From Dehalococcoidia bacterium (GTDB lineage: Bacteria; Chloroflexota; Dehalococcoidia; Plut-88900): a DNA stretch of 64,000 nt. The stretch covers positions 839,397-903,396 of the forward strand of contig CBDBLV010000004.1 in the NCBI GenBank assembly GCA_965207225.1, in the 5' to 3' direction. Both the position numbers and the translations under genes were made by a program. Shown here piece by piece: positions 25,969-64,000 of this stretch (position 1 is its first letter; each line of letters starts with the position of its first letter). The notes below the pieces were generated by a model. It was not told where the DNA came from. It searched no databases and saw only the letters and a list, made by a program, of their open reading frames with translations.

Positions 25969-26814
25969 CTACTTCCACCAAATGCCTAGGGTGAGCATTC
26001 GTCGCAGGAGGCGCAGCCGCCTCACTCCAGCCAACTCCCTCCGGGCCTGCGCCAGCGCCTCACGTCGCCAGCGCAGATGGTCCTCCCTGCGCGAAGCGTC
26101 CAGAGGCGTCGCCTCCGGAGGCAGGGCCAGGCGGAAGTCTCCGATCATGGCGATCTCCAGCTCCCACCGGCGCGCCGCAGCCTCCGCCCGATCAACGCGG
26201 TTGGCCTCAGCCCCAGTCCCGCTCCGCAGTTCCCGCCACTCGGCCACCAGCGCCGCGGCCGGGCCGAAGGCATGCTCCTCGTCGGGCCGCTCCTCAAGCG
26301 TGACCACGCCCGCGTCGGGAAGTCCGTGATCCCGTTGCGGGGGCCGCCACTCCTCGCTCTGTCCACAGTCGGCCTGGGAGGCATCGGCTTCGGTCTGTTG
26401 CCGGTCCTCGTCCTCGGGCGCGCCTGCCCGTCGTTCCAACCGCGTCGATCGCTCTGCCTGGGATTCGATGACTTCCCGCAGTTCTTCCTCCAAAGCCGCC
26501 ACCCTTCGCTCCAGCGACACAACCCGCTCCGCAATGTCGCTGGCGCCTTCATCGTCCGGATCATCGCCGTCGCCAGCGACCACGTCCCTGTACACTTCCA
26601 GCGCCCTTCGCATACGCGGAGACACCAGCCGCGAGTCGTGGCAGATCGCCAGCGTGCGGTAGTTCACCCCCAGCGCCTCTGCCGCGGCGACCCTGCCCCG
26701 GTCATCGACCAGAGAGTCCAGCATGTCCAATAGGGATGCGTCCGACAGTGGGACATTCACCCCGTCGCCGGAGCCGTTCGCCCCGTCCGCGACAGGCTCA
26801 TCATGGTCAGTCAT
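25969..26814 (-). CDS. Conserved hypothetical protein (HTH-like N-terminus, coiled coil), module A
   Basis: Paralog of 40539-41414; AAAEALGVNYRT; GGAGG RBS. Confidence 0.8.
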   Translation of the reverse strand: MTDHDEPVADGANGSGDGVNVPLSDASLLDMLDSLVDDRGRVAAAEALGVNYRTLAICHDSRLVSPRMRRALEVYRDVVAGDGDDPDDEGASDIAERVVSLERRVAALEEELREVIESQAERSTRLERRAGAPEDEDRQQTEADASQADCGQSEEWRPPQRDHGLPDAGVVTLEERPDEEHAFGPAAALVAEWRELRSGTGAEANRVDRAEAAARRWELEIAMIGDFRLALPPEATPLDASRREDHLRWRREALAQARRELAGVRRLRLLRRMLTLGIWWK

Positions 26815-26957
26815 CGCACCCTCCGCGTCTCAGAAAACTGCAATAACCGCAATACAATAAGTACAATATATCCGACACGGACCCGCAGTAAAATCGCTTG
26901 CGGGATTTTCCTTCAGGCCTCCCTGATTCCCCTTCATTCAGGTACGATTCTCATCCC

Positions 26958-27050
26958 GATTGTACTCTACAATGTATTTCGATTCTCCTTACAACCCTCA
27001 TTGGGCGAAAACCGCCCCTGAGCGATTGCAGTCTGACGCGTCAGCCCCCC
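26958..27050. other. Conserved intergenic block (candidate oriT), module A
   Basis: Matches the reverse complement of 40301-40395; palindrome CTGACGCGTCAG. Confidence 0.45.
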
Positions 27051-27267
27051 GATGGCCCGGCGGCAGCAGGCCCCCCGGCCCGTTGCCGGTCAACCGTTCT
27101 TGCGGGTTGCGTCAATGGATTTCGCCGGTCCGACTCCTTGTCTGACTGTGGATTCCGGCTGCATGGACGCGACGACGCGCAATTGACGCGACAGTCAGAT
27201 CCGTCGGTCTATCTCATCGTCCGCCCGCTGAGTCGCGCTTGCGGTTTTTGGGTGGCTCCGCCATAAT

Positions 27268-27281
27268 AGAACATATGTATT
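27268..27281 (+). promoter_or_regulatory. Possible LexA (GAAC-N4-GTTC-type) box next to -10 element
   Basis: CATAAT-AGAACATATGTATT upstream of the coupling-protein gene; equivalent site at 40192-40205. Confidence 0.4.
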
Positions 27282-27346
27282 ACCATCAGGTCGCGGCGGG
27301 AGTCATCATTCAGAGGACAGAGCCGGGCGTCAGAGGAGGTTCCACC

Positions 27347-29959
27347 ATGAGATTCAACCCTATAGCCGGACTGTTCAAGGGCGAAGAGAAACCCGCCACC
27401 AGGCTGATGAGCGTCACGCCGCCGCGCTCAGGGGAGCGCACCATGCTGGGTGTGGAGAACCTGCTGAGCTCGATCGCCATACCGGAGCCCTTCTCGCTTG
27501 AGATAGTGGGAGACGGCGGCGGGGTCAGCCTGCTGGCCCGCTGCCGTGACGGCTCCTTCGTTCGCCAGCAGGTGGGCGGTCGATACCCGCAGGCCACTGT
27601 GAACGAGCTCTCCGCCGAGGACGACCCTCTGAGGCTGTCCGAGGGGGAGCGGGCGTGGTCGATGGACCTGCGGCTCGATGGGCCGGAGTACCTGCCGCTG
27701 CGCAGCTTCCGGGACGACGACCTGCTCGACCCCGGCTCGGATCCCCTGATCTCGGTCATCGGCTCGCTGTCGGATCTGGAGGAGGGAGAGCGGCTGGTGG
27801 CCCGGCTGCGTGTGCTCTCGCTTGGGCCGGACTGGTCCAGCGCCCACCAGGAGAAGGCCAACTCCAGGCCCGCGTACGACCCGAACGCGTCCGCATCCAG
27901 CGCCCAAGGCGACGCGCAGGTCAACCGCAGAACCATGGTCCACTTTGCGATGCTGGCGCTGCTGGCCTTGCCGGCGCTGAAGGCATACTTGTGGATACAG
28001 GCCGGCGAGACGTGGAAGGCTGTACTGCTGGGACTGGGAGTGATGTCCCTCGCTGCCCTGGCGGGCTGGGGATGGTGGCGCTTCAAGAAGTGGCGCTCCG
28101 GGGGCAAGTACCGGGACCCTCTGATGATCAAGGAGAAGGTCTCCAAACTCGCCTACGAGGCGCAGCTGGAGGTTACGGCCGTCCTGTCTGAGCACGGCGC
28201 CGAGGCTCGCGCGAAGGAGTTGCTGCGGAACGTCGCCTCGGCCTACGGCCACTACAACAACCCGGCAGGCGCCAGCTTCAGGGCCACCAAGGTCCGGCCT
28301 TCGGTTCCAGACACCGAGCCGTCGCCTCCCGTCAGAGGACTGTTCCAGAGCCGGGACGTGCTGGGGGTCAGGGAGCTGGCGGCTCTGTGGCACCCGCTTG
28401 GGGCCGGAGACCAGCTGCCCATGGTGGCGCGCAGCGGCGCCAGGGCGCTGTTCCCGTCGTCCGGGAACAACCCGGGCGGCGCCTACGTGGGAGACACGGT
28501 TGTGGGCAGGCCGAGGAAGGTCCACTTCCCAGCCGACGCGATGGGCCGCCACCACCTGTACGTGGCCCGCACCCGCATGGGCAAGTCCACGCTGATGCGC
28601 CACCTGGTCGTCCACAAGATGCGGGAGAAGGCGGCGGGCCGCAACGACGACGCCATAGTGGTCGTCGATCCCCACGACGACCTGGTGAAGTCCCTGCTGG
28701 AGCACGTGCCGGAGGAGATCGCCGACCAGGTATATCTCATCGACCTTGCCGACGACGAACGCTCGCCCGGCGTCAACCTGCTGGACGCCCGGATCTTCCC
28801 GGACAGGGACCGCACGACCGACTCGGTGGTGCGCATCTCCAGGGGGCTGTGGGACCAGTGGGGACCCAGGATGCAGTCCATCCTGGAGCACACGATGAAG
28901 AGCCTGCACGAGTACAACGCTCACCCCGACACGCGGGAGGAGGAGCAATGCACCATCCTGGACGGGCTGCGGCTTCTGTCCGATCTGGAGTACCGCGGCC
29001 GGATTCTCAGGCGCGTGTCCGACCCGTACATCCTGGGCTGGTGGGCCAGGGACTTCCGCAGCTGGACGCGGACTTTGAGGGCCGACGCGGTCGCCCCGGT
29101 CCAGACCAGACTCGCCTACTACGCGTCGTCGAAGAAGGCAAGGGCCATACTGGGCCAGCGCCGATCCACCCTGGACATGCGGGAGGCGATCGCCGGGGGC
29201 GGCATTCTGCTGGTCGCCACGTCGCAGGCCGTAGCGGGGCGGGACGTGTCCGCGCTGGTGGGAGCGTCGCTGCTCAACCTGACCGACGCGGTGATCAGGG
29301 AGCAGGGCAGGCTGTCGCCGGAACGGAGGCGCGGCGCGCTTGTGGTGGTGGACGAGATGCAGTCCATTCCCGGGGTGGACTACGAGTCGATGCTTTCCGA
29401 GCTTGGAAAGTTCGGGGCCAGCTTCATCCTGGCCACCCAGAGCCTGGCGAGGCTTGCGGAGCTGTCTCCCACCATGCGGGACACGCTGCTTGCCAACGTC
29501 GGGTGCCTCGCGGTGTTCCAGGTGGCGGCGTCCGACGCCCGGCAGCTCATAGGGGAACTGGACAGGGACCGGTTGGACGAGGAGGACCTGGTGTCGCTGC
29601 CGGCGCACCAGTGCTACGTGCGCGCCACGGTGGACGGCCTCAGGCAGCCCACCTACTCCTTGGGTGTGCGAAAGCCCGAGGAGGGGAGTCCGGAAGCTGC
29701 GGAGCGGGTAATGGCCCGCGCCGAGGCGTACACCACTCCGGTGGAGGCAATCGCCTCCCAGGACCCCGAGATCAAGAGAATGGCGCAGGAGTTTCGGGAG
29801 GAGCTGGAACGGGAGGAGGAAGGAAAGCGAGAAGGAACCCCGCCGCCGCCCGCTGCACGCAACGGAACGACGGCCCGGCCCGGTGGAAGGAAGAGAGTGC
29901 GCACGCGGCGCAAGGGCGGCAGGCCGGACGGCGCCGGCGGCCCGGCAGGGGCTGCATGA
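27347..29959 (+). CDS. VirD4/TraD-like type IV coupling ATPase, module A
   Basis: Two TM helices, Walker A ARTRMGKST, VVDPHDD, Walker B VVVDEMQ, LATQS; GGAGG RBS. Confidence 0.82.
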   Translation: MRFNPIAGLFKGEEKPATRLMSVTPPRSGERTMLGVENLLSSIAIPEPFSLEIVGDGGGVSLLARCRDGSFVRQQVGGRYPQATVNELSAEDDPLRLSEGERAWSMDLRLDGPEYLPLRSFRDDDLLDPGSDPLISVIGSLSDLEEGERLVARLRVLSLGPDWSSAHQEKANSRPAYDPNASASSAQGDAQVNRRTMVHFAMLALLALPALKAYLWIQAGETWKAVLLGLGVMSLAALAGWGWWRFKKWRSGGKYRDPLMIKEKVSKLAYEAQLEVTAVLSEHGAEARAKELLRNVASAYGHYNNPAGASFRATKVRPSVPDTEPSPPVRGLFQSRDVLGVRELAALWHPLGAGDQLPMVARSGARALFPSSGNNPGGAYVGDTVVGRPRKVHFPADAMGRHHLYVARTRMGKSTLMRHLVVHKMREKAAGRNDDAIVVVDPHDDLVKSLLEHVPEEIADQVYLIDLADDERSPGVNLLDARIFPDRDRTTDSVVRISRGLWDQWGPRMQSILEHTMKSLHEYNAHPDTREEEQCTILDGLRLLSDLEYRGRILRRVSDPYILGWWARDFRSWTRTLRADAVAPVQTRLAYYASSKKARAILGQRRSTLDMREAIAGGGILLVATSQAVAGRDVSALVGASLLNLTDAVIREQGRLSPERRRGALVVVDEMQSIPGVDYESMLSELGKFGASFILATQSLARLAELSPTMRDTLLANVGCLAVFQVAASDARQLIGELDRDRLDEEDLVSLPAHQCYVRATVDGLRQPTYSLGVRKPEEGSPEAAERVMARAEAYTTPVEAIASQDPEIKRMAQEFREELEREEEGKREGTPPPPAARNGTTARPGGRKRVRTRRKGGRPDGAGGPAGAA

Positions 29960-31617
29960 GGGCGAAGGAGCGGGAGGGGCTGGCTCTGCGGACTCTGGCG
30001 GCGATGCCCTTCCTGGACCGTCTGGAGCTTGCCGCCGTCGCGGGCGTCCACGAGGAGGCGGCCCACATCGCTCTCGAGAGCCTTGAGCGAGCTGGGCTCG
30101 TCGACTTCATTCGCCACGCCTCTCCCCTGACGGCGACAACCAGACGCTGGTTCGCAACCACAATGGGGCTGAGGCTCCTGGCCTCGGAGAACGGGACCGG
30201 CATCGACCGCCTGCTGCGCACGCATCCGGTATCGGCCCACTGGCGACGCATCCTGCTGGCGCGGCTGGACGCAGTGGCCGCGATCTACCGCTTGACGTCG
30301 GCGGTGGCGAATGCGGCCGGCCCTCCCCGATTCCGCTGGTACCGCGCCGCGCCGCTGGACGCCGCCATGCTGCTTCCTGACGGCAGGACCTTCGGCGTGA
30401 TCCGTCAGGGGCCGACCGCCGACCGAACCGCCTTCTCCGACCGTGCGCGCCGCCTACTGGACCCTGAGCGGTCCAGGCCCCGCGCCCTGCTTGCGCTCAT
30501 GCCCGATGGGGCGCGACTGCGCGAGGCGCGGCGGCTGTTCGCTCGTCATCCCGGCCAGGTGTACATGGCTCTTGAGCGAGATGCGGCCCGCCTGATGCCC
30601 GACGACAGGGTATGGCATGGAACGTCCGGTCCTGGGCCATTATCCCTCCGTGAGGCGTTCGCTCACCTCCGTCCGGGTGGAAGCATCCCCTGGGAGGCGC
30701 CGACATCGAGGCTGTCGCTGCCCGGTGACACCGACCTGCATGGGATTGAAGATGATGATGTCGCCGACCACCTGCTCCCCCTCACTCTCAAGCCCTCAGA
30801 GAAGCGGATGCTGGACTGCCTCGCCGACTGGCCCCTGGTTACGGTGGAAGACCTGGCGGGCATCCTCAGCCTGTCCGACTCCCGCGCGCGGCGGCTCGCC
30901 GCGCGCCTGAACGGGTTGGGACTGGTCGCGCAAGTCCGTCTTGCGAGCCGTCGCCGCTTCGCCCTCGGCGATAGGGGCCTAGCCCTTCTGGCACGCAGGG
31001 ACCGGGGCTCGGTCGGAGCTGCCCTGCGTCGCTGGAGCGTCGAGCCGAAGGACGACGAGGCTCTATCGTCATGGCGGGACGTTCCGGGCAGGCGCAGCCG
31101 TACCCTTGCCCGGACCATTGAGCACACACAGGCGGTGCACCGCTTCATGGCGACGCTGGCGAGGCAGGCGAAGGGAACGAAGGACCGCCGCGTTGAGCGG
31201 GTGTCGCCACCGCATCACGCCGCCCGGTACTTCCGACACGGAGGCGGCATGCGCTCCATCCACCCGGACGGCTTCGGGGTGGTGCATGCCAACGGACGCG
31301 CCTGGCCCTTCTTTCTGGAGTACGAGCGCAGAGCGGTGAATCCCTCCACCATGACCGCGCGGCTCGCGCCCTACCTGCGCTACTACTCCTCCAACCGGCC
31401 CCTGGAAGACCACGGGGAACGCCCCCTGGCGCTCATCGTATTCGATGACCCTCTGGCCGAGACCAACTTCCTCGGTGTTGCCCGCGGGGAGATGCGGCGC
31501 AACAAGGTCGAGCCGCCCCTCTGGGCATCCCATAGGGAAGCGATAGAGCGAGCGGGGCCGCTGGGCAAGGCGTGGCGCAGCCCGGAAGCAATGGAACCGA
31601 GCCGCGTCTTTGAGTGA
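29956..31617 (+). CDS. Replication-relaxation (Replic_Relax) family protein, module A
   Basis: ATGA overlap with coupling gene; wHTH, IEHT..VH, HPDG...FFLEYER PD-(D/E)xK-like motif. Confidence 0.72.
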   Translation: MRAKEREGLALRTLAAMPFLDRLELAAVAGVHEEAAHIALESLERAGLVDFIRHASPLTATTRRWFATTMGLRLLASENGTGIDRLLRTHPVSAHWRRILLARLDAVAAIYRLTSAVANAAGPPRFRWYRAAPLDAAMLLPDGRTFGVIRQGPTADRTAFSDRARRLLDPERSRPRALLALMPDGARLREARRLFARHPGQVYMALERDAARLMPDDRVWHGTSGPGPLSLREAFAHLRPGGSIPWEAPTSRLSLPGDTDLHGIEDDDVADHLLPLTLKPSEKRMLDCLADWPLVTVEDLAGILSLSDSRARRLAARLNGLGLVAQVRLASRRRFALGDRGLALLARRDRGSVGAALRRWSVEPKDDEALSSWRDVPGRRSRTLARTIEHTQAVHRFMATLARQAKGTKDRRVERVSPPHHAARYFRHGGGMRSIHPDGFGVVHANGRAWPFFLEYERRAVNPSTMTARLAPYLRYYSSNRPLEDHGERPLALIVFDDPLAETNFLGVARGEMRRNKVEPPLWASHREAIERAGPLGKAWRSPEAMEPSRVFE

Positions 31618-31708: not shown

Positions 31709-31933
31709 ATGCGCATATCGGAACGCGGACAAATCACCATTCCCAAGCGGTTCAGGGACCGCTTCGGCATGAACAAGGACGTCGAGGTCGAAATCACGCC
31801 GACCGAACACGGCCTGCTAATACAGAAGCGGTCGGCGGCGCAACATCCGGTCGAGAGAGTCAGCGGGATTCTTGACGGCGTTGACGCCGCTTTCGACGTT
31901 GACCAGTACATGGAAGAGATCCGGGGAAGATGA
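31709..31933 (+). CDS. vapB: AbrB/MazE-type antitoxin
   Basis: MRISERGQITIPK..R...G. Confidence 0.8.
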   Translation: MRISERGQITIPKRFRDRFGMNKDVEVEITPTEHGLLIQKRSAAQHPVERVSGILDGVDAAFDVDQYMEEIRGR

Positions 31934-32328
31934 TCACGTCGGTCGATACCAGCGTCCTGCTGGATGTCTTCGCGTCCGGCTCACCGCACCACTCTCAATC
32001 GCAGGTGTGGCTCATCGACGCCTACGATAGAGGAGCCATCCTGGTCTGCGACGTCGTCTACGCGGAGCTTGTACCGGCTTTTGGCGACCGCTCCTCGCTG
32101 GACGGATCCCTGCGGGAGATCAATGCGGTGGTCTCTCCGATTGACACCGCTATCGCATATGAGGCTGGATTGCGCTGGGCGCGATACCGGCAGGCGGGAG
32201 GGCCGAGGGAACGCATCATCGCCGACTTCCTGATTGGCGCGCACGCCATAGCCAATGCGGACACCTTTCTGACCCGGGACCAGGGATTCTACTCCACCTA
32301 CTTTCCCGAGCTGCAAGAACAACAGTAA
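31930..32328 (+). CDS. vapC: PIN-domain toxin
   Basis: VDTSVLLD, YAEL, ADFLIGAHA, LTRD; ATGA overlap. Confidence 0.88.
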   Translation: MITSVDTSVLLDVFASGSPHHSQSQVWLIDAYDRGAILVCDVVYAELVPAFGDRSSLDGSLREINAVVSPIDTAIAYEAGLRWARYRQAGGPRERIIADFLIGAHAIANADTFLTRDQGFYSTYFPELQEQQ

Positions 32329-32374: not shown

Positions 32375-34039
32375 ATGAAGGAGAAGCGCCTACAGCCGCT
32401 CACACCGGCGGCGCTGTACGCCAGGGTATCCAGCGACCGGCAGGACGTGGACCTGTCCGTATCCGCACAGCTGAGGGCGCTCAAGGAGTACGCGAAGGCC
32501 AACGGTTATTCTGTGGCCCGCGAGTACGTGGACGAGGCCGAGAGCGGCCGCGTCGCAGATAGGCCGCAGTTCAGGGAGATGATCGAGGAGGGCAGCAAGC
32601 CCAAGGCCCCCTTCGAGGTCATCCTCGTCTGGAAATTCAGCCGCTTCACCAGGAAGCGCGAGCACGCCGTGGCCTTCAAGGCCCAGCTGCGGCGCAAGGG
32701 CATCCGCGTGGTCTCCATCACCGAGCAGGCAGAGGACAACGCCACCGGAAGGCTGCTCGAGGGCATCATAGAGAGCGTGGACGAATACTACTCGGAGAAT
32801 CTGGCGCAGGAGGTCGTCCGTGGCATGAGGGAGGCCGCTTCGAGAGGCTTCTTCCTCGGATCCAAAGCCCCCTTCGGCTACCGGAAGATCAAGGTCAGCG
32901 ACGGACCTAAGGAGCGTCCCTCGCTTGAGGTAGACCCTGCCACCGCTCCGGTGGTGAAGGAGATATTCGAGAAGTCCCTGCGTGGCAGCGGCCTCAAGGA
33001 GATGTGCAAGGAGCTGAACGACCGGGGCATCACCAACCGGGGCAAGCGTTGGTACAAGGGAACGCTCCACTACGTGCTGAGAAACGAGGCGTACACGGGA
33101 ACCGCTGTGTGGGGCAAGACGAGCAAGGGAGACAAGGCCCCGGATCCCGTGCGCGTGGAGGGAGCGTGGCCCGCGCTGGTGTCGAGGGATCTGTTCGACG
33201 ACGTTCAGCACGCGATGAGCGAGCGCGCCCCGAAGGTGCAGAGGCCCGGTAGGGTGGGGAGCAGGTACCTGCTGAGCGGACTGCTCAGGTGCGGTGTCTG
33301 CGGCAAGCCCTATCGCGCGCAGGGAGCCAAGAGCGGCCGGTTCGCATACTACATCTGCGGCACCCTGTTCACCGAAGGAGCGGGGACGTGCAGCGCCCGC
33401 TACCTGAGCGCCCCGAAGGTCGAGGACTTCATCGTCGACAAGATCAGGGAGCGCATCCTCAACGAGGAGACTATCGTTGAACTGGTTTCGCTGGTGGCGG
33501 AGGAGGTCGACGCGATTGCCGGTGAGATGTCCGGCAGGTTGGAGGTAATCGAGGCGGAGCTGGAGGACGTGAGGAAGCGGCTGGAGAAGCTCTACGAGGC
33601 CATCGAGACGAGCGATCTGACCCTGGAGGTCCTATCGCCCCGCATCTTCTCTCTAAGGCACCGCGAGGAGCAGCTGGAGTCTGCGAGAGACGACGCGGAG
33701 CGCCAGCTTGAGCGGCGCAGGGTGGAGCTTCCCACAACCGACGTGATCAGAGAATACGTTGCAGACTTCCGGGAGTTCCTGAAGGAAGGGACGTTCCCCG
33801 AGCGCAAGGCGCTCATCCGCAACTTCGTGGAGGGCATCGAGGTGGTCGGAGACGAGGCGACGCTGACGTACACGGTCCCCATGCCTAGCGACGGCGTGAC
33901 GAAGGAATCGGCCTCGGTTCTTGATTTTGTCAAGTCCGGCCCACCAGACTTGACGTTAGACAGAACCGGGGCGTGGAGAGCCACATCCTGGGCGTCCCTT
34001 CCGCCTATGGGAGCGTCCTCCGGCATAGGTATGGAATAG
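32375..34039 (+). CDS. Large serine recombinase A
   Basis: YARVSS catalytic Ser, SRFTR, recombinase domain APFGY, Zn ribbon LLSGLLRCGVCG, coiled coil. Confidence 0.95.
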   Translation: MKEKRLQPLTPAALYARVSSDRQDVDLSVSAQLRALKEYAKANGYSVAREYVDEAESGRVADRPQFREMIEEGSKPKAPFEVILVWKFSRFTRKREHAVAFKAQLRRKGIRVVSITEQAEDNATGRLLEGIIESVDEYYSENLAQEVVRGMREAASRGFFLGSKAPFGYRKIKVSDGPKERPSLEVDPATAPVVKEIFEKSLRGSGLKEMCKELNDRGITNRGKRWYKGTLHYVLRNEAYTGTAVWGKTSKGDKAPDPVRVEGAWPALVSRDLFDDVQHAMSERAPKVQRPGRVGSRYLLSGLLRCGVCGKPYRAQGAKSGRFAYYICGTLFTEGAGTCSARYLSAPKVEDFIVDKIRERILNEETIVELVSLVAEEVDAIAGEMSGRLEVIEAELEDVRKRLEKLYEAIETSDLTLEVLSPRIFSLRHREEQLESARDDAERQLERRRVELPTTDVIREYVADFREFLKEGTFPERKALIRNFVEGIEVVGDEATLTYTVPMPSDGVTKESASVLDFVKSGPPDLTLDRTGAWRATSWASLPPMGASSGIGME

Positions 34040-35547
34040 CGCAGCAGGGCGTTGCCAGGCATGACCACGATCTCCTTGACGAAGGACTCTATGAAGGCTC
34101 TGCGCTCGGTCAGTTCACTTTCGTTGAGGAACACGCTCATCTCCTGTGCGTAGGCCGTGATGGTTTCCACGTCGTCCAGTACCTCCCTGCGCTGGGAGAG
34201 CATCGTTTTGGCCTCGGCAGCCGACGCCTCCAGCTTCTCCTGCCGTTCCCGGTGGTCTCTGATGCGAGGCTTGAAGTCCTCGATGTCCAGGTCGGTGGTC
34301 TCCGCCAGGTCGTAGAGACGTTCCAGCCTGCGTTTCACGTCGGCAAGCTCCGACTCGATGGTCTCCAGCCTCTGCCGCTGCTCCTTGGCGATGCCGTCCA
34401 TCTCCTCGTCCACCAGCTTCACCAGTTCCCGGATGTTGGACTCTGTGAGCGCGTTCTCCCTGATCTTTCCCACCACCATCTCCTCGAATCGCCGGGCGTT
34501 GAGCCTGGGTGTATCGCAGGCGTCCTTTCCCCGCTTCATGATGGACTGGCAGACGTAGTAGGCGTACCTGCCGCTCTTGGCGTCCTGTCCGGAGAGCGCC
34601 CTGTTGCACGACCTGCATTTGACCAGCCCGCTGAGCAGGTAGGAGCTTCCCACCCTGCGGGGATGAGTTCTCCTGGGCGCCCTTGAGCGCAGTCGTTTGT
34701 TGACTCTCTCGAACTGGGCCTTGGAGATGATTCCGGGGAACGCCTTGTCGACTCTGACCGGCTCGGCCTTGTCCTTGCCGCCGACGCCCCAGAGAAGCGT
34801 TCCGGTGTAGACTTCGTTGCGGAGGATGATGTGGACGCCGTTCTTGGACCAGAGCCTGCCGGTGGGATTGGCGATGCCCTCGGCGTTGAGGGTCTGGGTG
34901 ATGTTCAGGATGCCCCTGCCCGACTCGGCCATGGAGAAGATGCGCCGCACCACGGGAGCGGTGGCGGGATCGGGTTCCAGCGTGGGGCGTTTCTTGGGTC
35001 CGTCCTGCGCCATGCGCTTGTTGTAGCCGTAGGGCGCCCTGCTGGCGACCCAGAAGCCGCGGGAAGCCGCCTCCCGCATTCCCCGGCGAACCTCCTCGGC
35101 AAGATTCTCGCTGTAGAACTCATCAACGCTCTCGATGATGGCCTCCATGAGCCTGCCGGTGGGGGAGTCGTCGGCATGCTCGGTGATGGAGACGACGCGG
35201 ACGCCCTTGCGTCTGAGCATGGACTTGAAGGCGACGGCGTGTTCGCGCTTTCTGGTGAAGCGACTGAATTTCCAGACCAATATCTCCGCAAAAGGGGCCT
35301 CCGGCTTGGATGCCTCGTCCAGCATCTTCTGGAACTGCGGCCTGTCGGCTACGCGTCCGCTCTCGGCCTCGTCGATGTACTCGCGGGCTACCGTGTAGCC
35401 GTTCTTGTCCGCGTAGTCCCGGAGCGCCCGCATCTGGGCGGCCACCGACAGGTCCACGTCCTGTCTATCGCTGGACACTCTGGCGTAGAGGGCCACGGGG
35501 GTGCGTTCATTGGTCTGATTCATGGATGCGTCCTCCTCTCGGTTCAT
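33592..35547 (-). CDS. Large serine recombinase B (3' read-through across att junction)
   Basis: Same motifs; homology to recombinase C ends at VKSGGP (~33938). Confidence 0.95.
   Translation of the reverse strand: MNREEDASMNQTNERTPVALYARVSSDRQDVDLSVAAQMRALRDYADKNGYTVAREYIDEAESGRVADRPQFQKMLDEASKPEAPFAEILVWKFSRFTRKREHAVAFKSMLRRKGVRVVSITEHADDSPTGRLMEAIIESVDEFYSENLAEEVRRGMREAASRGFWVASRAPYGYNKRMAQDGPKKRPTLEPDPATAPVVRRIFSMAESGRGILNITQTLNAEGIANPTGRLWSKNGVHIILRNEVYTGTLLWGVGGKDKAEPVRVDKAFPGIISKAQFERVNKRLRSRAPRRTHPRRVGSSYLLSGLVKCRSCNRALSGQDAKSGRYAYYVCQSIMKRGKDACDTPRLNARRFEEMVVGKIRENALTESNIRELVKLVDEEMDGIAKEQRQRLETIESELADVKRRLERLYDLAETTDLDIEDFKPRIRDHRERQEKLEASAAEAKTMLSQRREVLDDVETITAYAQEMSVFLNESELTERRAFIESFVKEIVVMPGNALLRYSIPMPEDAPIGGRDAQDVALHAPVLSNVKSGGPDLTKSRTEADSFVTPSLGMGTVYVSVASSPTTSMPSTKLRMSALRSGNVPSFRNSRKSATYSLITSVVGSSTLRRSSWRSASSLADSSCSSRCLREKMRGDRTSRVRSLVSMAS
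33915..33968. other. att-like junction between recombinases A and B
   Basis: CGGTTCT-n7-GTCAAGTC-CGGCCCACCA-GACTTGAC-n7-AGAACCG symmetry; core GGCCCACCA recurs at 53338. Confidence 0.75.
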
Positions 35548-35862: not shown

Positions 35863-37521
35863 TCAAACAAAGGCCCGCCTGGGTTCCATGACGTCTGGAT
35901 TGCGCCAGGCTTTGCCCAGCGGCCCGACCTTCTCCAGCCTCTCCCTATGGGACACCCACAGGGGCGGCTTCACGCCGCGGCGTTCCATCTCCACGCGGGC
36001 GACGCCGAGGAAGTTGGCCTCGGCCAGGGGATCGTCGAAGACGATGAGCGCGAGTGGCCGGTGTCCATGGTCTTCCAGGGGCCGGTTGGAGGAGTAGTAG
36101 CGCAGGTAGGGAGCGAGCCGGGCGGCCATGGTGGACGGGTTCACCGCCCGGCGCTCGTACTCCAGGAAGAAGGGCATGGTCCGGCTGCCGGTCTGCGCCA
36201 CGCCGAAGCCGTCGGGGTGGACGGAGCGGAAACTGCCGCCGTACCGGAAGTGCCGGGTGGCGTGATGGGGCGGCGACACCGCAACGACGCGATAGCCTTT
36301 CGTCCCTTTCGCCTGCCGCGTCAGCGCCGCCATGAACCGGTGCGCCGCCTCGGTGTGGTCGATGGCGCGGGCCAGGGGACGCGCCCGCGCCCCCGGCAGG
36401 TCTCGCCAGGAGGACGGAGGTTGTCCGTCCACCGGCTCGACGCTCCAGCGGCGGACGGCAGACCCCACGGAAGCCCGGTCTCTGCGGGCCAGGAAGGACA
36501 GCCCTCCATCGCTGAGAGCGAAGCGGCGCTGGCCTGCAAGATTGACCGGAGCGACCAAATCCAACCTGTTCAGACGGGCGGCAAGCCGCCACGCGCGGGA
36601 GTCGGAGAGGCCAAGGATGCCCGACAGGTCTTCGACGGTGATCAGAGGCCAGTCGGCGAGGCAGTCGAGCATCCGCTTCTCGGCGGGCTTGAGGAGGACG
36701 GGGAGCAGGTGGTCGGCGGCGTCATCGTCAATCCCGCGCAACTCGGCCTCTTCGGGCAGGGATTGTCTCGAAGTCGGCCTCTCCCAGGGAATCGCGCCGC
36801 CCTGCCGCAGGTGGGCGAATATCTCGCCAAGGGACAGGAGCGAAGGAGCGGACGTTGCGCGCCACACCCTGTCGTCGTCCGACAGGCTGGCCGCGTCCCG
36901 CTCGAGAGCCAGGTACGCCGGTCCGGGATAGGGAGCCAACAGCCGCCGCGCCTGGCGCAGCCTCGCCTCGTCGGGCGCGAGGGCGAGCAGGGCGCGGGGC
37001 CTGGATAGCTCCGGGTCAAGGAGGCTGCGCGCCCGGTCGGAGAACGCCGTACGGTCCGCGGTGGCGCCCTGCCGGATCACGCCGACGGTCCTGCCGTCAG
37101 GGAGGGTCATGGCGGCGTCCAGCGGAGCGGCGCGATACCACCGGAAGCGGGGAGGGCCGACCGCATCCGCCACCGCCGAGGCCAGTCGGTAGACGACGGC
37201 CACGGCGTCCAGGCGCGCCAGCAGGATGCGTTGCCAGTGGGCCGATACCGGATGCGTCAGCAGCAGGCGGTCGATGCCGGTTCGGTTCTCAGAAGCCAGG
37301 AATCGCAGTCCCTCCCTGGTGGCGTACCAACGTCTGGTGGGGTCGGTCAGGGGAGAGGCGTGGCGTATGGAGCCCGCCAACCCCTTCCGCCGCAGCTGGC
37401 CCAAGACGTGGCGGGCCGTGCTCTCGGCCATGTCCGATACGGAGGCCAACTCCAGGTAGTCGAGGAAGGGCATGGCCGCCAGGGTCCACAGGCTCAGCCG
37501 CTCCCGCTCTCCGGGTCTCAT
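35863..37521 (-). CDS. Replic_Relax family protein, module B
   Basis: Paralog of 29956-31617 (HPDG, FFLEYERRA). Confidence 0.72.
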   Translation of the reverse strand: MRPGERERLSLWTLAAMPFLDYLELASVSDMAESTARHVLGQLRRKGLAGSIRHASPLTDPTRRWYATREGLRFLASENRTGIDRLLLTHPVSAHWQRILLARLDAVAVVYRLASAVADAVGPPRFRWYRAAPLDAAMTLPDGRTVGVIRQGATADRTAFSDRARSLLDPELSRPRALLALAPDEARLRQARRLLAPYPGPAYLALERDAASLSDDDRVWRATSAPSLLSLGEIFAHLRQGGAIPWERPTSRQSLPEEAELRGIDDDAADHLLPVLLKPAEKRMLDCLADWPLITVEDLSGILGLSDSRAWRLAARLNRLDLVAPVNLAGQRRFALSDGGLSFLARRDRASVGSAVRRWSVEPVDGQPPSSWRDLPGARARPLARAIDHTEAAHRFMAALTRQAKGTKGYRVVAVSPPHHATRHFRYGGSFRSVHPDGFGVAQTGSRTMPFFLEYERRAVNPSTMAARLAPYLRYYSSNRPLEDHGHRPLALIVFDDPLAEANFLGVARVEMERRGVKPPLWVSHRERLEKVGPLGKAWRNPDVMEPRRAFV

Positions 37522-40154: not shown

Positions 40155-40300
40155 GAGACATATCCTCCTATTGCCCAGAGTCGCAGCGAAAAGAACGTAT
40201 GCGCTAATACTACCCTGTCGGCTGCGAGGAAAGCAAGGCCGCGATGACCGCAGAGGACCGCCCCGGCGCGCCGAGACGAGCCGGAACTCAGACGGCGGGC

Positions 40301-40395
40301 CGGAGGGCCTGACGTGTCAGACTACAATCGCTCAGAGACGGTTTTCGCCCTGGGAGGGCTGTAAGGGAATCAGGAATACATTGTAGAATACAATC
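40301..40395. other. Conserved intergenic block (candidate oriT), module B
   Basis: Inverted homolog of 26958-27050. Confidence 0.45.
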
Positions 40396-40538
40396 TGGGT
40401 GATATTCGTAGCTGATTGAAGGGGAATCCGAGGGAAGTGACGGGAATCCTGCGAGCAGTTTGACTGCGGGCTGGCGCTAAGTCTATTGCACTTATTGTAG
40501 TGTGGATATTGTAGTTTTCTGGGGTATAGGAGGCCCAC

Positions 40539-41414
40539 GTGAGTGATGCCAAGCAGTCCAGGCAAGGGGTTCCGGGCGACTCCGGCGATGCGACCATCTA
40601 CCTATCGGATGCCCCCCTATCGGACGACTCCCTACTGAACATGCTGGACGCCCTGGTGAATGACCGGGGCAAGGTCGCCGCGGCCAAGGCGCTGGGGGTG
40701 AACTACCGCACGATGACGGCCTGTCACGGGTCCCGCCGTGTGTCCCCTCGGATGCGGAGGGCGCTGGAGGAGTACCGGGACAAGCGCGTTGACGGCGATG
40801 GTGAGCGGGACGATGACGCTGGTGGCATTGCGAGGAAGATGGCCGCGCTGGAAGAACAGGTGAAGGCGTTGGAGACGGAGAACCAGGCCCTGCGGGAGAC
40901 CGTCGAAACACAGGCGGAGCAGATTAGAGAGTTGGAGCGCAATGCTGAAGGTCAGGAGGAAGGTGAAGGGCAGGAGATCGAGTCGGATGCGCCCGAGTCC
41001 AAGGATGAGGGTGAGGAAGGACAGAGACGCGAGTGGCGGCCTCCAAGACGGGAGCGCGGGCTTCCCGACGAGGGCGTCGTCACGTGGGAGGAACAGCCCG
41101 ACGAGGAGCGCGCCTTCGGCCCGGCGGCATCCCTGGTTGCCGAGTGGCGGGAGCTGCGGACCGGGGCTGAGGCTTTGGGCGGTCGGGTGGACCGGGCCAG
41201 AGCCTCGGTCCGACGGTGGGAGCTGGAGGTCGCCATGCTCGGCGACTACGGCCTGACGCTGCCGCCGGAGAGGGAGCCTCTGGACGCCTCGCGAAGGGAG
41301 AACCACCTGCGGTGGCGGCGGAAGGCCCTGGCCGAAGCAAGGCGGGCGTTGGCAAGGGCGGAGCGTATGCGGTGGCTCAGAAGAATGCTCACCCTCGGTC
41401 TGTGGTGGAGATGA
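40539..41414 (+). CDS. Conserved hypothetical protein, module B
   Basis: Paralog of 25969-26814, ends LRRMLTLGLWWR. Confidence 0.8.
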   Translation: MSDAKQSRQGVPGDSGDATIYLSDAPLSDDSLLNMLDALVNDRGKVAAAKALGVNYRTMTACHGSRRVSPRMRRALEEYRDKRVDGDGERDDDAGGIARKMAALEEQVKALETENQALRETVETQAEQIRELERNAEGQEEGEGQEIESDAPESKDEGEEGQRREWRPPRRERGLPDEGVVTWEEQPDEERAFGPAASLVAEWRELRTGAEALGGRVDRARASVRRWELEVAMLGDYGLTLPPEREPLDASRRENHLRWRRKALAEARRALARAERMRWLRRMLTLGLWWR

Positions 41415-53167: not shown

Positions 53168-53341
53168 GGCGGTCCAGTCCGCGCCTCCCGCGTTCAAGCC
53201 GAAATTCGGCCTTCCCGGAGCTTTCCAAAGTCTCCAGGCTAGGATAGTATCCTCCTCAGCCTGATAGCTGAGAAACCAGCCGATTCTCGTGTGAAGCGCC
53301 GATTCTCACGTGTGGGTAATCCCCGTGAAATCACGAAGGCC
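53168..53341 (+). repeat. Dispersed promoter/end repeat, copy 3, ending at att core
   Basis: TTTCCA-17-TAGTAT at 53222-53250; runs into GGCCCACCA. Confidence 0.85.
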
Positions 53342-54965
53342 CACCATTTTTGACGGTAGACAGAACCGAGCCGTTCAGGGCCATCTCCTCGGCGTTTCTC
53401 CCTCCTACCGGTCCATCCTGAGGCATGGGGATGGTGTACCGGAGGAGGGCGTTGTCGGGCATGACGACGATCTCCTTGACGAAAGACTCGATGAAGGCCC
53501 TGCGCTCGGTCAGTTCGCTCTCCTTCAGGAACTCGCTCATGTCCTGGGCATAGGCCGCGATGGTCTCCACGTCGTCCAGCACCTCCCTGCGCTGGGAGAG
53601 GATGGTCCTGGCCTCGGCCGCCGAGTCCTCAAGGCGCTGTTGACGCTCCCGGTGCTCCCTGATGCGTTCCGAGGCGTCGGCCATGTCGAGGTCGGTGTTC
53701 TCCACCAGGTGCCAGACGCGGCCCAGCTTGCGCTTGACCTCATCAAGCTCGGCCTCGATGGTCTCCAGCTTCTGCCGCTGCTCGGCGGCGACCCCATCCA
53801 TCTCCTCGTCCACTATCTTGACCAGTTCGGTGATGTTGGACTCGGTGAGGACGTTCTCCCGTATCCTCTCCACCACCATCTCCTCGAAGCGTCGTGCGTT
53901 GAGCCTGGGGGTCGTGCAAGCGTTCTTGCCCCGCTTCATGATGGACTGGCAGACGTAGTAGGCGAACTGGCCGCTCTTGGCGTCCTGGCCTGAGAGCGCC
54001 CTGTTGCAGGACTTGCACCTGACCAGCCCGCTGAGCAGGTAGGAGCTTCCCACCCTGCGGGGGTGGTTCCTTTTGGGGGCGCGGGAGCGCATGAGCCGCT
54101 TGACGCGGTTGAATTGGGCCTTGGAGACGACGGCGGGGAACGCCTTCTCTATGCGTACGGGGTCGGACTTGACCTTCCCTGTAGTGCCCCAGAGCAGCGT
54201 GCCCGTGTAGACCTCGTTTCTGAGGATGAAGTGGACGCCGTTCTTGGACCAGAGCTTGCCGGTGGCGCTGGCGATGCCCTCGCCGTTGAGTGTGCGGGTG
54301 ATTTCGGTCATCCCGGTGGCCGACTCGGCCATGTCGAAGATGCGCTTGACGACGGGAGCAGTGTCAGGGTCGATCTCCAGTGTGGGCCGCTTCTTGGCTC
54401 CGTCCTGCACCATGACGCGGTTGTAGCCGTAGGGCGTCCGGCTGGCGACCCAGAAGCCTCTGGAAGCGGCCTCCCGCATCCCACGGCGAACCTCTTCCGC
54501 AAGATTTTCCGAGTAAAACTCATCGACGGACTCGATGATGCCCTCAAGGAGCCTGCCGGTGGCGGTGTCGTCGGCCTGCTCGGTGATGGAGACGACGCGG
54601 ACGCCCTTTCGCCTGAGCATGGACTTGAAGGCGACGGCGTGCTCGCGCTTTCTGGTGAATCTACTAAATTTCCACACAAGGATTTTTCTAAACGGGGCCT
54701 CGGGCTTGGCGACCTCGTCGATCATCTTGCGGAACTCCGGGCGGTCGGCGACGCGCCCGCTCTCGGCCTCGTCCACGTACTCGCGGACGACCACGTAGTC
54801 GTTCTTCTGGGCGTATTCCCTGAGCGCCCGCAACTGTGCGGCCACGGACAGGTCCACGTCCTGTCTGTCGCTGGAGACCCTGGCGTAGAGGGCCACGGGG
54901 GTGTAGTCGCTTCTATTGTTCATCTGTGAGTCCTCCTCCTGTTTCCTGTCGTTCCCGTGGGCCAC
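53331..54965 (-). CDS. Large serine recombinase C
   Basis: YARVSS, recombinase domain, Zn ribbon CKSC; ends VKNGGPS*. Confidence 0.95.
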   Translation of the reverse strand: MAHGNDRKQEEDSQMNNRSDYTPVALYARVSSDRQDVDLSVAAQLRALREYAQKNDYVVVREYVDEAESGRVADRPEFRKMIDEVAKPEAPFRKILVWKFSRFTRKREHAVAFKSMLRRKGVRVVSITEQADDTATGRLLEGIIESVDEFYSENLAEEVRRGMREAASRGFWVASRTPYGYNRVMVQDGAKKRPTLEIDPDTAPVVKRIFDMAESATGMTEITRTLNGEGIASATGKLWSKNGVHFILRNEVYTGTLLWGTTGKVKSDPVRIEKAFPAVVSKAQFNRVKRLMRSRAPKRNHPRRVGSSYLLSGLVRCKSCNRALSGQDAKSGQFAYYVCQSIMKRGKNACTTPRLNARRFEEMVVERIRENVLTESNITELVKIVDEEMDGVAAEQRQKLETIEAELDEVKRKLGRVWHLVENTDLDMADASERIREHRERQQRLEDSAAEARTILSQRREVLDDVETIAAYAQDMSEFLKESELTERRAFIESFVKEIVVMPDNALLRYTIPMPQDGPVGGRNAEEMALNGSVLSTVKNGGPS

Positions 54966-55731: not shown

Positions 55732-55950
55732 TCACCGCCTGCCCTCGCCGTCATCCTCTGAGTGAGCCGCGTTCCTGCGCATGTGGGCGCGGACGGCGAC
55801 CTTGGCCAGGATGCGCAGCCCCTTGCGTATCGTCCTTCGCTGCTGAGGAGTATAGGACTCCATCGGCCTGTCGGAGGATGACTCGGGAGCATCCCTCCCC
55901 AGCCTCTTCTTTTGCCGGTTCCTCGTATCTTCTCTATTGGTGTCTTTCAT
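55732..55950 (-). CDS. Small basic hypothetical protein
   Basis: YTPQQRRTIRKGLRILAKVAVRAH amphipathic helix; co-oriented upstream of the recombinase. Confidence 0.5.
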   Translation of the reverse strand: MKDTNREDTRNRQKKRLGRDAPESSSDRPMESYTPQQRRTIRKGLRILAKVAVRAHMRRNAAHSEDDGEGRR

Positions 55951-56116: not shown

Positions 56117-56407
56117 CTAGCTCCTGAAGTGGGTCATCCGTAGCTCCTCCCCCAGGAGGATCGGAAGGCATCCGATGCGGTTGGCGAAGATGACCAGGGT
56201 GAGCATGGAGCCTCCGCTGGGCGCCCAGCCCTTGAGCCACCTTCGCAGCAGCTTGTAGTCGATGCCGGTGACCCTGCACAGGCCGCGCCAGGAGAGGCCG
56301 CTGGCCTCCTTGAGGCGCACGAGCCGCTGGGGGAAGTCCTCGGGCATGTCGGCGCCCTGAAGGGGCTCCATCTCGCTCCATCCGTCGATGTGATCGATGT
56401 TGGTCAT
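56117..56407 (-). CDS. XRE-type HTH protein
   Basis: FPQRLVRLKEASGLSWRGL...GID..LLRRW; GGAGG RBS. Confidence 0.72.
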   Translation of the reverse strand: MTNIDHIDGWSEMEPLQGADMPEDFPQRLVRLKEASGLSWRGLCRVTGIDYKLLRRWLKGWAPSGGSMLTLVIFANRIGCLPILLGEELRMTHFRS

Positions 56408-56729
56408 GTCTATCCTCCATGTCGTAAAGCTTTGGGTTGTTGTTCCCAAGGCCATGTGCATCCGGCGGCGGATGCGACCGGAGGGCGGTCGCTCCCCACG
56501 CGCCGACTTCGACATGGGACCGGGTCTGTCTGTATCGACCCCGGCGGGCCGGTTCCGGGAGGTGATCACCGAAGTGAGCCGTCTCCCAGAGCCGCCGCGT
56601 CGAGCCGGACGGCGCTCCGTCCTCCGCTCCTCCGGGGGCCTCTTGCTATATCGTTATCCGGTGAACGCATCGGCTTTCCATCTCCTATCGGGTATTGAGC
56701 GGGAGTTTTCGCGCCGCTCCCTGCGTCGT

Positions 56730-63229: not shown

Positions 63230-63250
63230 TTCGTTCGCTTCCTTTTCTCA

Positions 63251-63568
63251 CTAGGGGACTGGAATGGGGATGACGCCGTGGCTCAGCAGCGCGGCGACGC
63301 CCTTGGCGGACAGAACCAGCGCCAGGCCGATGACGGCCAGCACCACTGCGGTCTTGGCCCTGCCGCCGCCCCGCTCCTCCGCGCCCTCGGCCATCAGGAC
63401 GAACCCCGCCCAGACGACGGCGAAGACGGCGAGTCCGGCGGCGGCGTAGGCCATCGCGGTCAGCACCGCGTCGAAGGCGGCCAGCATCGCCCGCTCCTCG
63501 GCCGGGGCCGCGCCGACGGTCGCCAACGCAGCCCCGGCAAGGAGGATTGCCGTCCATGCCCGTCTCAC
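63251..63568 (-). CDS. VirB2/TrbC-like pilin
   Basis: Leader plus two hydrophobic helices with AG..LM...G.E....RAK..V..AVIGL. Confidence 0.62.
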   Translation of the reverse strand: MRRAWTAILLAGAALATVGAAPAEERAMLAAFDAVLTAMAYAAAGLAVFAVVWAGFVLMAEGAEERGGGRAKTAVVLAVIGLALVLSAKGVAALLSHGVIPIPVP

Positions 63569-64000
63569 CAGAGCCTGCCCTCAGCTTGACTGGGGGGCCA
63601 CTCCCATCCCAACCGGCGGAACCAGTCGGTCAGGTCGCCGCCGGGCGTCTGCTCGGCGGGCGGGTCTTCGGGCTCGGGCTCCGGCAGAATCAGCACCGCA
63701 AAGGCGTCGTCGGACCCGATTTCGGAGGCCAGGGATAGGGACTCTTCCCTTGTCTTGGTGAGGGGTTCCCGGTCGGTCGTCTCAGCCTTGACGTGCTCGG
63801 GATGGACGATGGTGAGGGTCACGTCCCTCTGCACCGTCTCGCCGGGCACCGACAGGGTGGCGGAGACGGTGTGCTCCGTGGTCGTTCCGTCGTCGCTGGT
63901 GACGGTGACCGTCTCGCTGACGGTCCGGGTCGTCCCCGGCCTGTACAGGCTCACCGTCTCGGTGCGCTTCTCCGTCCGCTCCGGGTGGTGGGTGAGCGTC
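63565..64000 (-). CDS. Thr-rich hypothetical protein, 3' part (extends beyond window)
   Basis: Open frame overlapping the pilin start; co-oriented with the tra genes. Confidence 0.55.
   Translation of the reverse strand, partial: TLTHHPERTEKRTETVSLYRPGTTRTVSETVTVTSDDGTTTEHTVSATLSVPGETVQRDVTLTIVHPEHVKAETTDREPLTKTREESLSLASEIGSDDAFAVLILPEPEPEDPPAEQTPGGDLTDWFRRLGWEWPPSQAEGRLW

Follow-up and report, generated by a model that had tools for sequence, protein, structure and literature searches.

Two gene modules, named A and B, in a 64,000-nucleotide stretch of Dehalococcoidia DNA are probably copies of a lineage of integrative mobilizable elements (IMEs) which has no mating channel and which would excise, transfer and use a helper element. 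The stretch, referred to as the window, makes up the final 64 kb of contig C4. The genome (G000) is 4.03 Mb in five contigs (C1-C5), with a completeness of 92% and a contamination of 8%. A, B and C denote modules in the window, and a position such as C4:821861 denotes a contig position. Module C is an integrative conjugative element (ICE). The evidence is composed of gene content, paralogy, the anatomy of the attachment (att) sites, the structure of the clade, purifying selection, and a lack both of channel genes and of other relaxase families. In the reading favored here, the lineage began long ago by deletion from an ICE and has since then been mobilizable, and the window copies are partly decayed members. 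It is probably not the case that both window copies are mobile.

Gene content of the three modules

The gene map of window positions 25969-64000 is based on frame-specific GC content and Pfam matches on 29 open reading frames (ORFs). Copies elsewhere in the genome were located by tblastn with the window proteins. Each of the three modules is made up of a coupling ATPase (type IV coupling protein, T4CP), a Replic_Relax protein (RR) and a large serine recombinase (Table 1). Pfam matches and pairwise identities confirm that the three are paralogous, as a reading made from the sequence alone (the sequence-only reading) had proposed. The T4CP stop and RR start overlap by 4 bases in all three. Every recombinase of the three has Resolvase, Recombinase and Zn_ribbon_recom domains (E 1e-32 to 1e-12). 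The T4CPs score 24.3-25.8 bits against TrwB_AAD_bind (PF10412, cut-off 20.5 bits), a VirD4-type nucleotide-binding domain, and the P-loop ARTRMGKST and the Walker B motif ALVVVDE are intact in A, B and C. A crude Kyte-Doolittle scan finds two hydrophobic 19-mers near residues 190-280 in the T4CPs of A and B and none over threshold in C.

A and B are closest in their transfer genes, with identities of 81% for T4CP and 74% for RR. Either of them is 61-62% (T4CP) and 47-49% (RR) identical to C. The recombinases are related differently: B and C share 78% identity, and A and B share 52-55%. A PIN-domain gene is found, among the modules, only in A and is a single copy in the genome.

Upstream of the T4CP, both A and B possess a divergent conserved ORF, div, of 281-291 aa. 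The div_A protein is 59-65% identical to those of B and its siblings, and 59-62% identical to div_B. Alignment of the div proteins places an HTH-like segment of div_A at AAEALGVNYRTL. These proteins match no Pfam or NCBIfam family, and their protein-atlas scores (0.79-0.83) are under the usable level and point weakly toward HTH or CI-type proteins.

Seven ICE proteins of the type IV secretion system (T4SS), namely VirB4, both pilins, the VirB6-like protein and three others, gave no tblastn match in window 25969-53340. The earlier claim that only C has VirB4 and a pilin is thus upheld. Genome-wide, the seven genes are found only in seven ICE copies and one contig-edge fragment.

Table 1. Features of modules A, B and C in the window, and siblings of B on other contigs
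Feature	Position	Strand	Basis or remark
div_A, divergent conserved ORF, 281 aa	25969..26814	-	HTH-like N-terminus and coiled coil; alignment of div proteins
div/T4CP intergenic region of A, candidate oriT or operator	26815..27343	.	TACAAT repeats and hairpins; conservation, repeat count
T4CP_A, VirD4-type coupling ATPase	27344..29959	+	TrwB_AAD_bind 25.2 bits; ORF opens 27239, likely start MRFNPIA at 27344
RR_A, putative wHTH and Replic_Relax, putative MOBC-type relaxase	29956..31617	+	PF13814 39.1 bits (42 bits in genome-wide search)
PIN-domain (VapC-like) gene	31930..32328	+	PF01850, E 9e-14
SerA-type large serine recombinase of A	32375..34039	+	Resolvase, Recombinase, Zn_ribbon_recom domains
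att junction of A and B	33916..33966	.	beta half-site, core GGCCCACCA, reversed alpha half-site; sequence GGTTCTTGATTTTGTCAAGTCCGGCCCACCAGACTTGACGTTAGACAGAAC
SerB-type large serine recombinase of B	33592..35547	-	three recombinase domains
RR_B, putative MOBC-type relaxase	35863..37521	-	PF13814 38.4 bits
T4CP_B	37518..40154	-	TrwB_AAD_bind 24.3 bits; P-loop and Walker B
div/T4CP intergenic region of B, candidate oriT or operator	40155..40538	.	5 TACAAT/ATTGTA in 384 nt
div_B	40539..41414	+	homology to siblings ends 41408-41410
ICE C, cut by contig end	53341..64000	-	Pfam, identity to twin
Left junction of ICE C	53332..53347	.	...CACGAAGGCCCACCA/TTTTTGACGG (crossover between); identity with twin ends right after TGGTGG
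ICE C recombinase	53331-54965	-	Resolvase, Recombinase, Zn_ribbon_recom domains
ICE C HTH gene	54968-55390	-	
ICE C 72-aa gene	55735-55950	-	
ICE C 150-aa gene	56117-56569	-	
ICE C RR	56730-58391	-	PF13814 25.7 bits
ICE C T4CP	58388-60919	-	TrwB_AAD_bind
ICE C VirB4	60935-63229	-	
ICE C pilin-like gene	63251-63568	-	
ICE C 567-aa protein, C-terminus only	63568-63999	-	
Sibling on C2	C2:75332-88270		12.9 kb; at tRNA-Lys; both att ends
Sibling on C5	C5:1036577-1054275		17.7 kb; at tRNA-Val; both att ends
Sibling on C3	C3:24856 to ~41950		between two other elements; far side has neighbor's degenerate beta site only

A clade of coupling ATPases without VirB4

The genome has 12 T4CP loci. Seven adjoin VirB4, and five do not: A, B and the copies on C2, C3 and C5, to which T4CP_B is 88-89% identical. 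A quick maximum-likelihood tree was made from 35 proteins, composed of 11 own copies and 24 loci of relatives; an identical twin, one fragment and two remote hits were omitted. The five VirB4-less proteins and one of genome G004 form a single clade (SH-aLRT 99) whose stem measures 0.4 changes per site, and all six of its loci are without VirB4. This clade lies outside the clade of 27 that contains all 25 VirB4-linked T4CPs. The G004 relative, which is VirB4-less with div upstream, is the only close relative outside the own genome. As a label on the tree, VirB4 requires 2 changes against a shuffled mean of 8.1, and 0 of 500 shuffles were as low. The phylogeny that had been suggested as a check therefore favors a distinct lineage as far as the coupling ATPases are concerned.

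The core genes of the five VirB4-less copies in the genome are under purifying selection. By the NG86 method, dN/dS is 0.15-0.26 for T4CP at dS 0.19-0.54, 0.25-0.41 for RR, 0.24-0.44 for div, with 0.34-0.44 for div_A, and 0.15-0.24 for the recombinase. Over these four genes, dS among the copies is 0.1-0.7. The non-coding region between div and T4CP is better conserved than the adjoining div gene. Its first ~245 nt are conserved in all six VirB4-less copies, and the region contains short hairpins. TACAAT/ATTGTA occurs four times in 424 nt of the A region versus 0.132 per kb genome-wide. The ICE intergenic regions have different repeats at the same position.

Complete siblings of B

Half-sites of two types, alpha (SerB/C-type recombinases) and beta (SerA-type), delimit the elements. 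Two siblings of B are located at different tRNA genes with both att ends, and a third lies between two other elements (Table 1); the own alpha distal end of the third was not recognized in the half-site scan. Each sibling holds a recombinase, RR, coupling ATPase and div, and tblastn found no VirB4, VirB6-like, pilin or other ICE T4SS gene in any of them.

The complete siblings extend 5.5-10 kb beyond div into variable cargo. Homology of A to the siblings ends at 25964-25966, just beyond the div_A stop codon. Variable cargo starts at the div stop codon, which is why homology among the copies ends there. Contrary to what had been supposed for A and B, the elements do not begin at div and the coupling gene. 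Likewise, A was considered as an 8-kb element ending at 25965 and this was rejected: the homology break there is the core/cargo border of all siblings, and no att half-site was found there.

The sibling cargo is made up of a Uma2-family nuclease and a 2839-2980-aa fn3 protein in two siblings and a cadherin-domain protein in the third. Very large surface-type proteins are found in IMEs and ICEs alike, of 2839-2980 aa with fn3 domains and of 1600 aa with Calx-beta domains (L005:9141-18083 on contig C5, L006:9460-17979 on C3 and L001:12006-16808 on C4). These proteins might act as mating adhesins.

The relaxase candidate

The canonical relaxase families MOBP, F, Q, V, T and H are represented by PF03432, PF08751, PF03389, PF01076, PF02486 and PF07514. 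Each matched in control genomes, and none has a match in the 92%-complete genome. The sequence-only reading, which had recognized no canonical relaxase, is borne out, and RR is the sole relaxase candidate. Replic_Relax (PF13814, cut-off 25.3 bits) has 31 matches over the cut-off in the genome. All 12 own loci show translational coupling of RR to T4CP. At 22 of the 23 family loci in other genomes, RR is the gene directly downstream of T4CP.

PF13814 is the MobC profile of CONJscan (PMC5357655). The Replic_Relax family is described as related to restriction endonucleases (PMC3424549, PMC6499999, PMC12857230). The MOBC prototype, TraX, has an N-terminal winged HTH (wHTH) and binds five direct repeats 70-120 bp from nic, and its active site was confirmed by mutagenesis, according to a review (PMC12857230). 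The RR N-terminus here gives only sub-threshold matches to MarR_2, MarR and HTH_24; many RR homologs list PF13412, PF12802 and PF01047 among their precomputed domains. RR and the repeat cluster before the operon fit a putative MOBC relaxase.

The RR subfamily is abundant in environmental Chloroflexota. Of 8000 scored candidates, 2637 are homologs of RR_B at E <= 1e-5, and identity is 62% or more in each of the best 120. One homolog is named as a replication-relaxation family protein of a Chloroflexota metagenome-assembled genome.

A different role for RR, as a replication initiator or a transcription factor, would make the elements integrating plasmids whose transfer processing is performed by an unrecognised protein. 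The Pfam family name does cover both replication and relaxation, Steczkiewicz et al. regarded it as a predicted transcriptional regulator with fused HTH domains (PMC3424549), and about 19 of the 31 RR genes are in elements without any T4CP. The pairing with T4CP in this and other genomes, the absence of any other relaxase family, the identity of PF13814 with the CONJscan profile and the mutagenesis of TraX make such a role improbable.

Probable decay of the window copies

Several points weigh against the reading of A and B as IMEs, and some of them touch the window copies directly. In the half-site scan, no alpha distal half-site was found in 41409-53340, and an IS256-type (Transposase_mut) gene, present as two ORFs at 41659-42919, lies downstream of div_B. 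B is thus read as a truncated copy whose distal att end is lost, because no alpha distal end occurs between 41409 and ICE C and a split IS256-type gene follows div. The same scan found no cognate (beta) distal att end of A in the window. The closest one, at C4:821861, lies 17.5 kb to the left of where the window begins. If this end is A's own, A would be a 51.5-kb decayed island rich in defense genes, in which type I restriction, DndB-like, TIR and toxin-antitoxin genes are accompanied by insertion sequences and gene fragments.

Left of div_A, an ICE-like 4xHTH gene (64% identical) is kept with a frameshifted y171 remnant, so A looks like a deletion derivative and likely descended from an ICE in this way. 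The flank has no x167, and several insertion sequences (IS) and gene fragments are present. A is also a chimera, in which a B-type transfer core (80% DNA identity to B) is joined to a SerA-type integrase; the integrases of A and B are of different families.

Other points concern the lineage or the data. The div/T4CP layout equals that of an ICE stripped of VirB4, of the second pilin and of ~4 kb of T4SS genes. VirB4-less T4CP loci occur in at least two or three clades, and therefore loss of channel genes recurs. The tree comes from a quick search, and VirB4 linkage in other genomes was judged from 1.5-kb flanks. The ICE-type RR is marginal against the PF13814 cut-off of 25.3 bits (A 39.1, B 38.4 and C 25.7 bits). 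In an alignment of five RR proteins, the putative catalytic residues P437-D438, E455 and E457 (PD...ExE) are invariant. The genome, at 92% completeness and 8% contamination, is a further such point.

The decay, the shared layout and the spread of VirB4-less loci over more than one clade would also suit inert ICE wreckage, in which the channel genes were deleted and the ORFs are still intact owing to recent decay or to gene conversion among copies. Such an origin is unlikely. All four core genes show dN/dS of 0.15-0.44 over dS up to 0.5-0.7, the six-member clade is uniformly VirB4-less on a long stem, the delimited siblings have no channel genes, and the conserved non-coding region exceeds div in conservation. 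Because of the clade, the selection and the siblings without T4SS genes, A and B are not simple recent ICE wrecks. The possibility that they are simply deletion-decayed ICEs, named earlier as a refutation, is unlikely in that form and survives in part, since descent of A by ICE deletion is likely. The IME reading itself stands for the family and is weakened for the two window copies, whose distal att ends are missing from the window.

ICE C and the proposed route of transfer

The 10,660 bases of ICE C are 100% identical to C4:735694-725035. This twin (C4:709004-735690) has both alpha ends and is complete, with a length of 26.7 kb. It is an ICE by its VirB4, T4CP, relaxase candidate, integrase, att ends, VirB6-like protein and two pilin-like proteins. 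Upstream of VirB4, it has the second pilin-like gene, a VirB6/TrbL-like gene, the 567-aa protein, two small proteins and a div-like gene. Further genes are two unknown genes, one for a four-HTH protein, and two for large Calx-beta or cadherin proteins.

Contig C3 opens with the final 32 codons of a div-like ICE gene, which match those of the twin at 100% identity. ICE distal genes follow in C3:1-11528, as far as the alpha distal end located at C3:11493. The ICE C of the window may continue on C3 across a ~4.4-kb gap, which would link the window to an array of ~100 kb on that contig. Three ICE copies (C5:1562024-1584017, C1:150842-170683 and C5:347359-365527) use other integrases: in one the gene is a frameshifted SerA-type copy, and in the other two it codes for a serine recombinase with only 27-29% identity to SerB. 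ICE and IME backbones thus exchange integrase modules, and A is an example. The VirB4 gene of another copy (C5:2020209-2024750) is split by a ~2.2-kb insertion, and so not all seven ICEs can be working helpers.

The core of the proposed element is composed of a CcrB/DsiB-like recombinase across the att site, a MOBC-type RR coupled to a VirD4-type ATPase, div and a candidate oriT or operator; variable cargo comes after it. The model proposes excision, nicking, hand-over from coupling protein to channel, and helper dependence. The recombinase would excise the element as a circle. The relaxase would bind the TACAAT repeats and nick. The element's own coupling protein would then pass the DNA on to a VirB4 / VirB6-like / pilin channel, supplied by one of seven related ICEs in the cell, C among them; use of the pore of C by A and B is inferred in this way. 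The recombinase would next insert the element at the CC of ...GGCCCACCA, either in the 3' end of a tRNA or where a resident element ends in a tRNA-like sequence. Four sequencing runs out of 15 were compared with the stretch for circles or empty sites; they consist of contigs whose pieces are about 0.2-1 kb long and break inside these repeats, and they speak neither for nor against excision.

Dehalococcoides has no peptidoglycan wall. Between wall-less cells, the ATPase of a VirB4-less element alone, perhaps with a giant surface protein as adhesin, could move DNA as do the FtsK-like TraB/TraSA proteins of actinomycete elements, and the elements would be self-transmissible. Two of the three channel-less siblings do possess a 2839-2980-aa fn3 protein and the third a cadherin-domain protein, and McMurdie et al. 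drew an analogy between Dehalococcoides islands and pSAM2 (PMC3146451). The ATPase is, however, VirD4-type (TrwB_AAD_bind) and not FtsK/TraB-type, and the related ICEs in the same cells keep the full VirB4 / VirB6-like / pilin set in the same layout. In each of the five genomes where a VirB4-less family T4CP occurs, a VirB4-linked one is present as well. Self-transmission is very improbable on these grounds, and IMEs that depend on a helper remain the preferred reading.

Attachment sites and alternating stacks

The 3' ends of all recombinase copies were aligned, and the genome was then scanned for the two half-site types. Large serine recombinase matches in the genome number several dozen, uncounted. 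The 13 SerB/C-type 3' ends share sequence up to ...GGTTCTGTCTACCGTCAAGTC TGGTGG. In 5 of them this is followed by a tRNA gene in reverse complement (Ile-gat, Ala-tgc, Lys-ctt, Val-gac, Met-cat), in 7 by a reverse-complemented SerA-type 3' end, and in the last, the ICE C of the window, by another sequence. The 13 SerA-type 3' ends share sequence to ...GTCAAGTCCRGCCCACCA and then diverge. Their shared sequence runs up to ...GGTTCTTGATTTCGTCAAGTCCRGCCCACCA, and the exception is a degenerate copy (C5:1990327), which diverges a few bases sooner.

In both families, each integrase gene crosses its own attachment site, with one half-site inside the gene. Beside tRNAs, genes of the SerB family read antisense through the tRNA. 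The core is the tRNA tip GGCCCACCA, which the SerA and SerB/C families read in opposite senses. The non-genic distal ends found by the scan are alpha with GGCCCACCA and beta with TGGTGGGCC. The elements are inserted at the tips of tRNA-Ile, Ala, Lys, Val and Met or at neighboring elements. Crossover is predicted at the CC of CCACCA, the center of symmetry of the site, because the two identical ICE C copies diverge right after TGGTGG.

A and B meet at one such core. The SerA gene of A is native up to 33947, with a perfect SerA-type att end at 33916-33947, and its last 31 codons are read from the DNA of B. The SerB gene of B is native in 33948-35547, and its last ~118 codons run antisense through the recombinase gene of A; its homology to the siblings and ICE C ends at 33937-33941. 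The two genes are convergent and overlap at 33592-34039, by ~450 bases. The tail-to-tail stacking of A and B comes from the opposite senses in which the two integrase families read one core; a same-orientation tandem is not what is found. Stacking at the same att site holds for A and B, which share the core at 33916-33966. It does not hold for C, which lies 19 kb from B, outside the A/B junction, at a non-tRNA site flanked by a dispersed repeat. ARAGORN finds no tRNA genes in the window. The dispersed repeat, of ~150 bases, is present at window 53176-53332 and, on the opposite strand, at 12700-12860 (75% identical), and the insertion point of ICE C coincides exactly with the end of one copy.

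A survey for arrays in 12 genomes of the family, another check that had been suggested, found junctions, and their pattern is an alternation of two integrase families. The element junctions are beta..alpha in 11 cases (8 in the own genome, one of them degenerate; the A/B junction is among the 11), alpha..beta in 8, alpha..alpha in 1 and beta..beta in 0. Mixed junctions thus number 19 of 20, and reversed-pattern controls for the scan gave 0. An alternating array of about six elements occupies C3:11493-106898. In the half-site scan of the own genome, no SerA-type distal end abuts a tRNA; these ends abut an alpha end in 7 cases, a third end type in 3 and an unknown flank in 1.

A tentative explanation, given somewhat less than even credence, is that the alpha and beta families interlock. 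They would share the core GGCC/CACCA (crossover after GGCC) in opposite senses, and each would land on the end of the other and reject its own. Stable, strictly alternating ICE/IME arrays, one of ~100 kb, would result. The beta elements would be obligate riders on resident alpha elements and not tRNA integrants. A hybrid attL or attR is normally inert for serine integrases; the mixed junctions are therefore proposed to persist as substrates for neither enzyme. Selection alone may produce the same pattern, if homotypic junctions form but are lost.

A third kind of end, ...AGTTCGCAGTTTAGTAGGCTTT with GGCCCACCA, abuts SerA-type distal ends at C4:9985, C5:145346 and C5:1944412. More recombinases are only 60-68% identical to SerB/C, e.g., at C5:1925871-1927478. 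From these ends and recombinases, more than two interlocking integrase families seem likely.

Other genes in the window

The region left of A (window 1-22200) is a defense island. It contains two DndB-like genes, one of them fused to a Swt1-like HEPN domain, and the type I restriction genes hsdR (12945-16169), hsdS (18106-19422) and hsdM (20579-22129). Nested in it are 8xMP, ThsB-like TIR, DUF2806/Abi-like and Phd/YefM genes and several IS fragments.

Between B and ICE C, a low-GC (47%) pair is made up of a RiboL-PSP HEPN gene and a GmrSD_N gene (43026-44653). It is flanked by the IS256-type gene and by a DDE_5 transposase present as two ORFs (44844-45814). A DNA polymerase III alpha gene without its N-terminal part, followed by an SRAP gene, occupies 48727-51458; the match begins at profile position 100 of the NTPase domain. 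Relatives have one or two copies of this DnaE/SRAP pair at ~70% identity. When window 48700-53330 was compared for synteny with 9 genomes of the genus, matches (~70%) were limited to the truncated DnaE and the SRAP gene, and the part adjoining ICE C has no counterpart in these genomes.

Significance and comparison with known systems

Serine-recombinase islands of Dehalococcoidia, some with dehalogenase genes, have been called mobilizable since 2011, with no known vehicle in the account given there (PMC3146451). The genome described here and its relatives provide a full candidate system within the class: small-channel ICEs, MOBC as the only relaxase family type, an old lineage of relaxase and coupling protein, and about nineteen relaxase-only elements. 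Relations of helper and hitcher become testable in an uncultured, wall-less lineage. If the alternation is true to enzyme specificity, it is a new stacking rule for serine-integrase elements, and the two integrase families would be a natural orthogonal pair with defined sites.

The gene set is already known from streptococcal IME_Class_8, of which two elements with VirD4, MobC and a serine integrase are reported by Coluzzi et al. 2017 (PMC5357655). Both systems have the same compact order of VirD4 coupling protein, PF13814 relaxase and serine integrase, both are without a pore, and both are read as mobilizable. The likeness is one of gene set, and the host is Bacillota there and Dehalococcoidia here. 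Unlike IME_Class_8 as described, the present elements have an integrase gene that spans att, a target at a tRNA 3' end or a neighbor's end, a divergent HTH-like gene and giant surface-protein cargo. What is new is the att logic, the phylum and the scale: within 4 Mb, T4CP-bearing elements number about a dozen and relaxase-only ones about nineteen. A literature search of incomplete coverage found no paper on conjugative T4SS elements in Chloroflexi/Dehalococcoidia.

The Dehalococcoides ssrA islands with DsiB are tandem stacks downstream of a small RNA gene and are read as IMEs in the account of McMurdie et al. 2011 (PMC3146451). They come from the same bacterial class and share with the present elements a CcrB-like large serine recombinase at the element edge; NCBIfam CcrB is the best match of the recombinases here, at 135-168 bits, below its cut-off. 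The islands target ssrA, have 20-bp direct repeats and carry DsiA, RecF, ParB and Mom genes, and no relaxase, coupling protein or known helper is described for them. In contrast, the present elements have tRNA-tip targets, T4CP and MOBC genes, and seven T4SS-bearing ICEs in the genome. Targeting of ssrA was not seen here, and no recognized half-site lies beside the tmRNA gene (C1:198772-199125). An ICE div-like gene (C1:192186-192956) is ~6 kb from it, and the ends of that ICE are unmapped.

The TraX relaxase of pAD1 (Francia et al. 2013, as reported in PMC6499999 and PMC12857230) combines a wHTH with a PD-(D/E)XK domain, has an oriT with short direct repeats and is located beside a coupling protein, an arrangement that the elements here may share. 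Membership of RR in this group is predicted from the Pfam match and conserved acidic residues.

Stacking as such is also familiar. Tandem accretion of ICEs and IMEs, as described elsewhere, involves tyrosine recombinases and repeated identical cores. The ICESt1/ICESt3 type was reportedly described by Pavlovic et al. in 2004, as cited in bioRxiv 10.64898/2026.01.13.699239. Both systems pile elements at one attachment site. Unlike that accretion, two serine-integrase families alternate almost strictly here, and the junctions are composed of two unlike half-sites.

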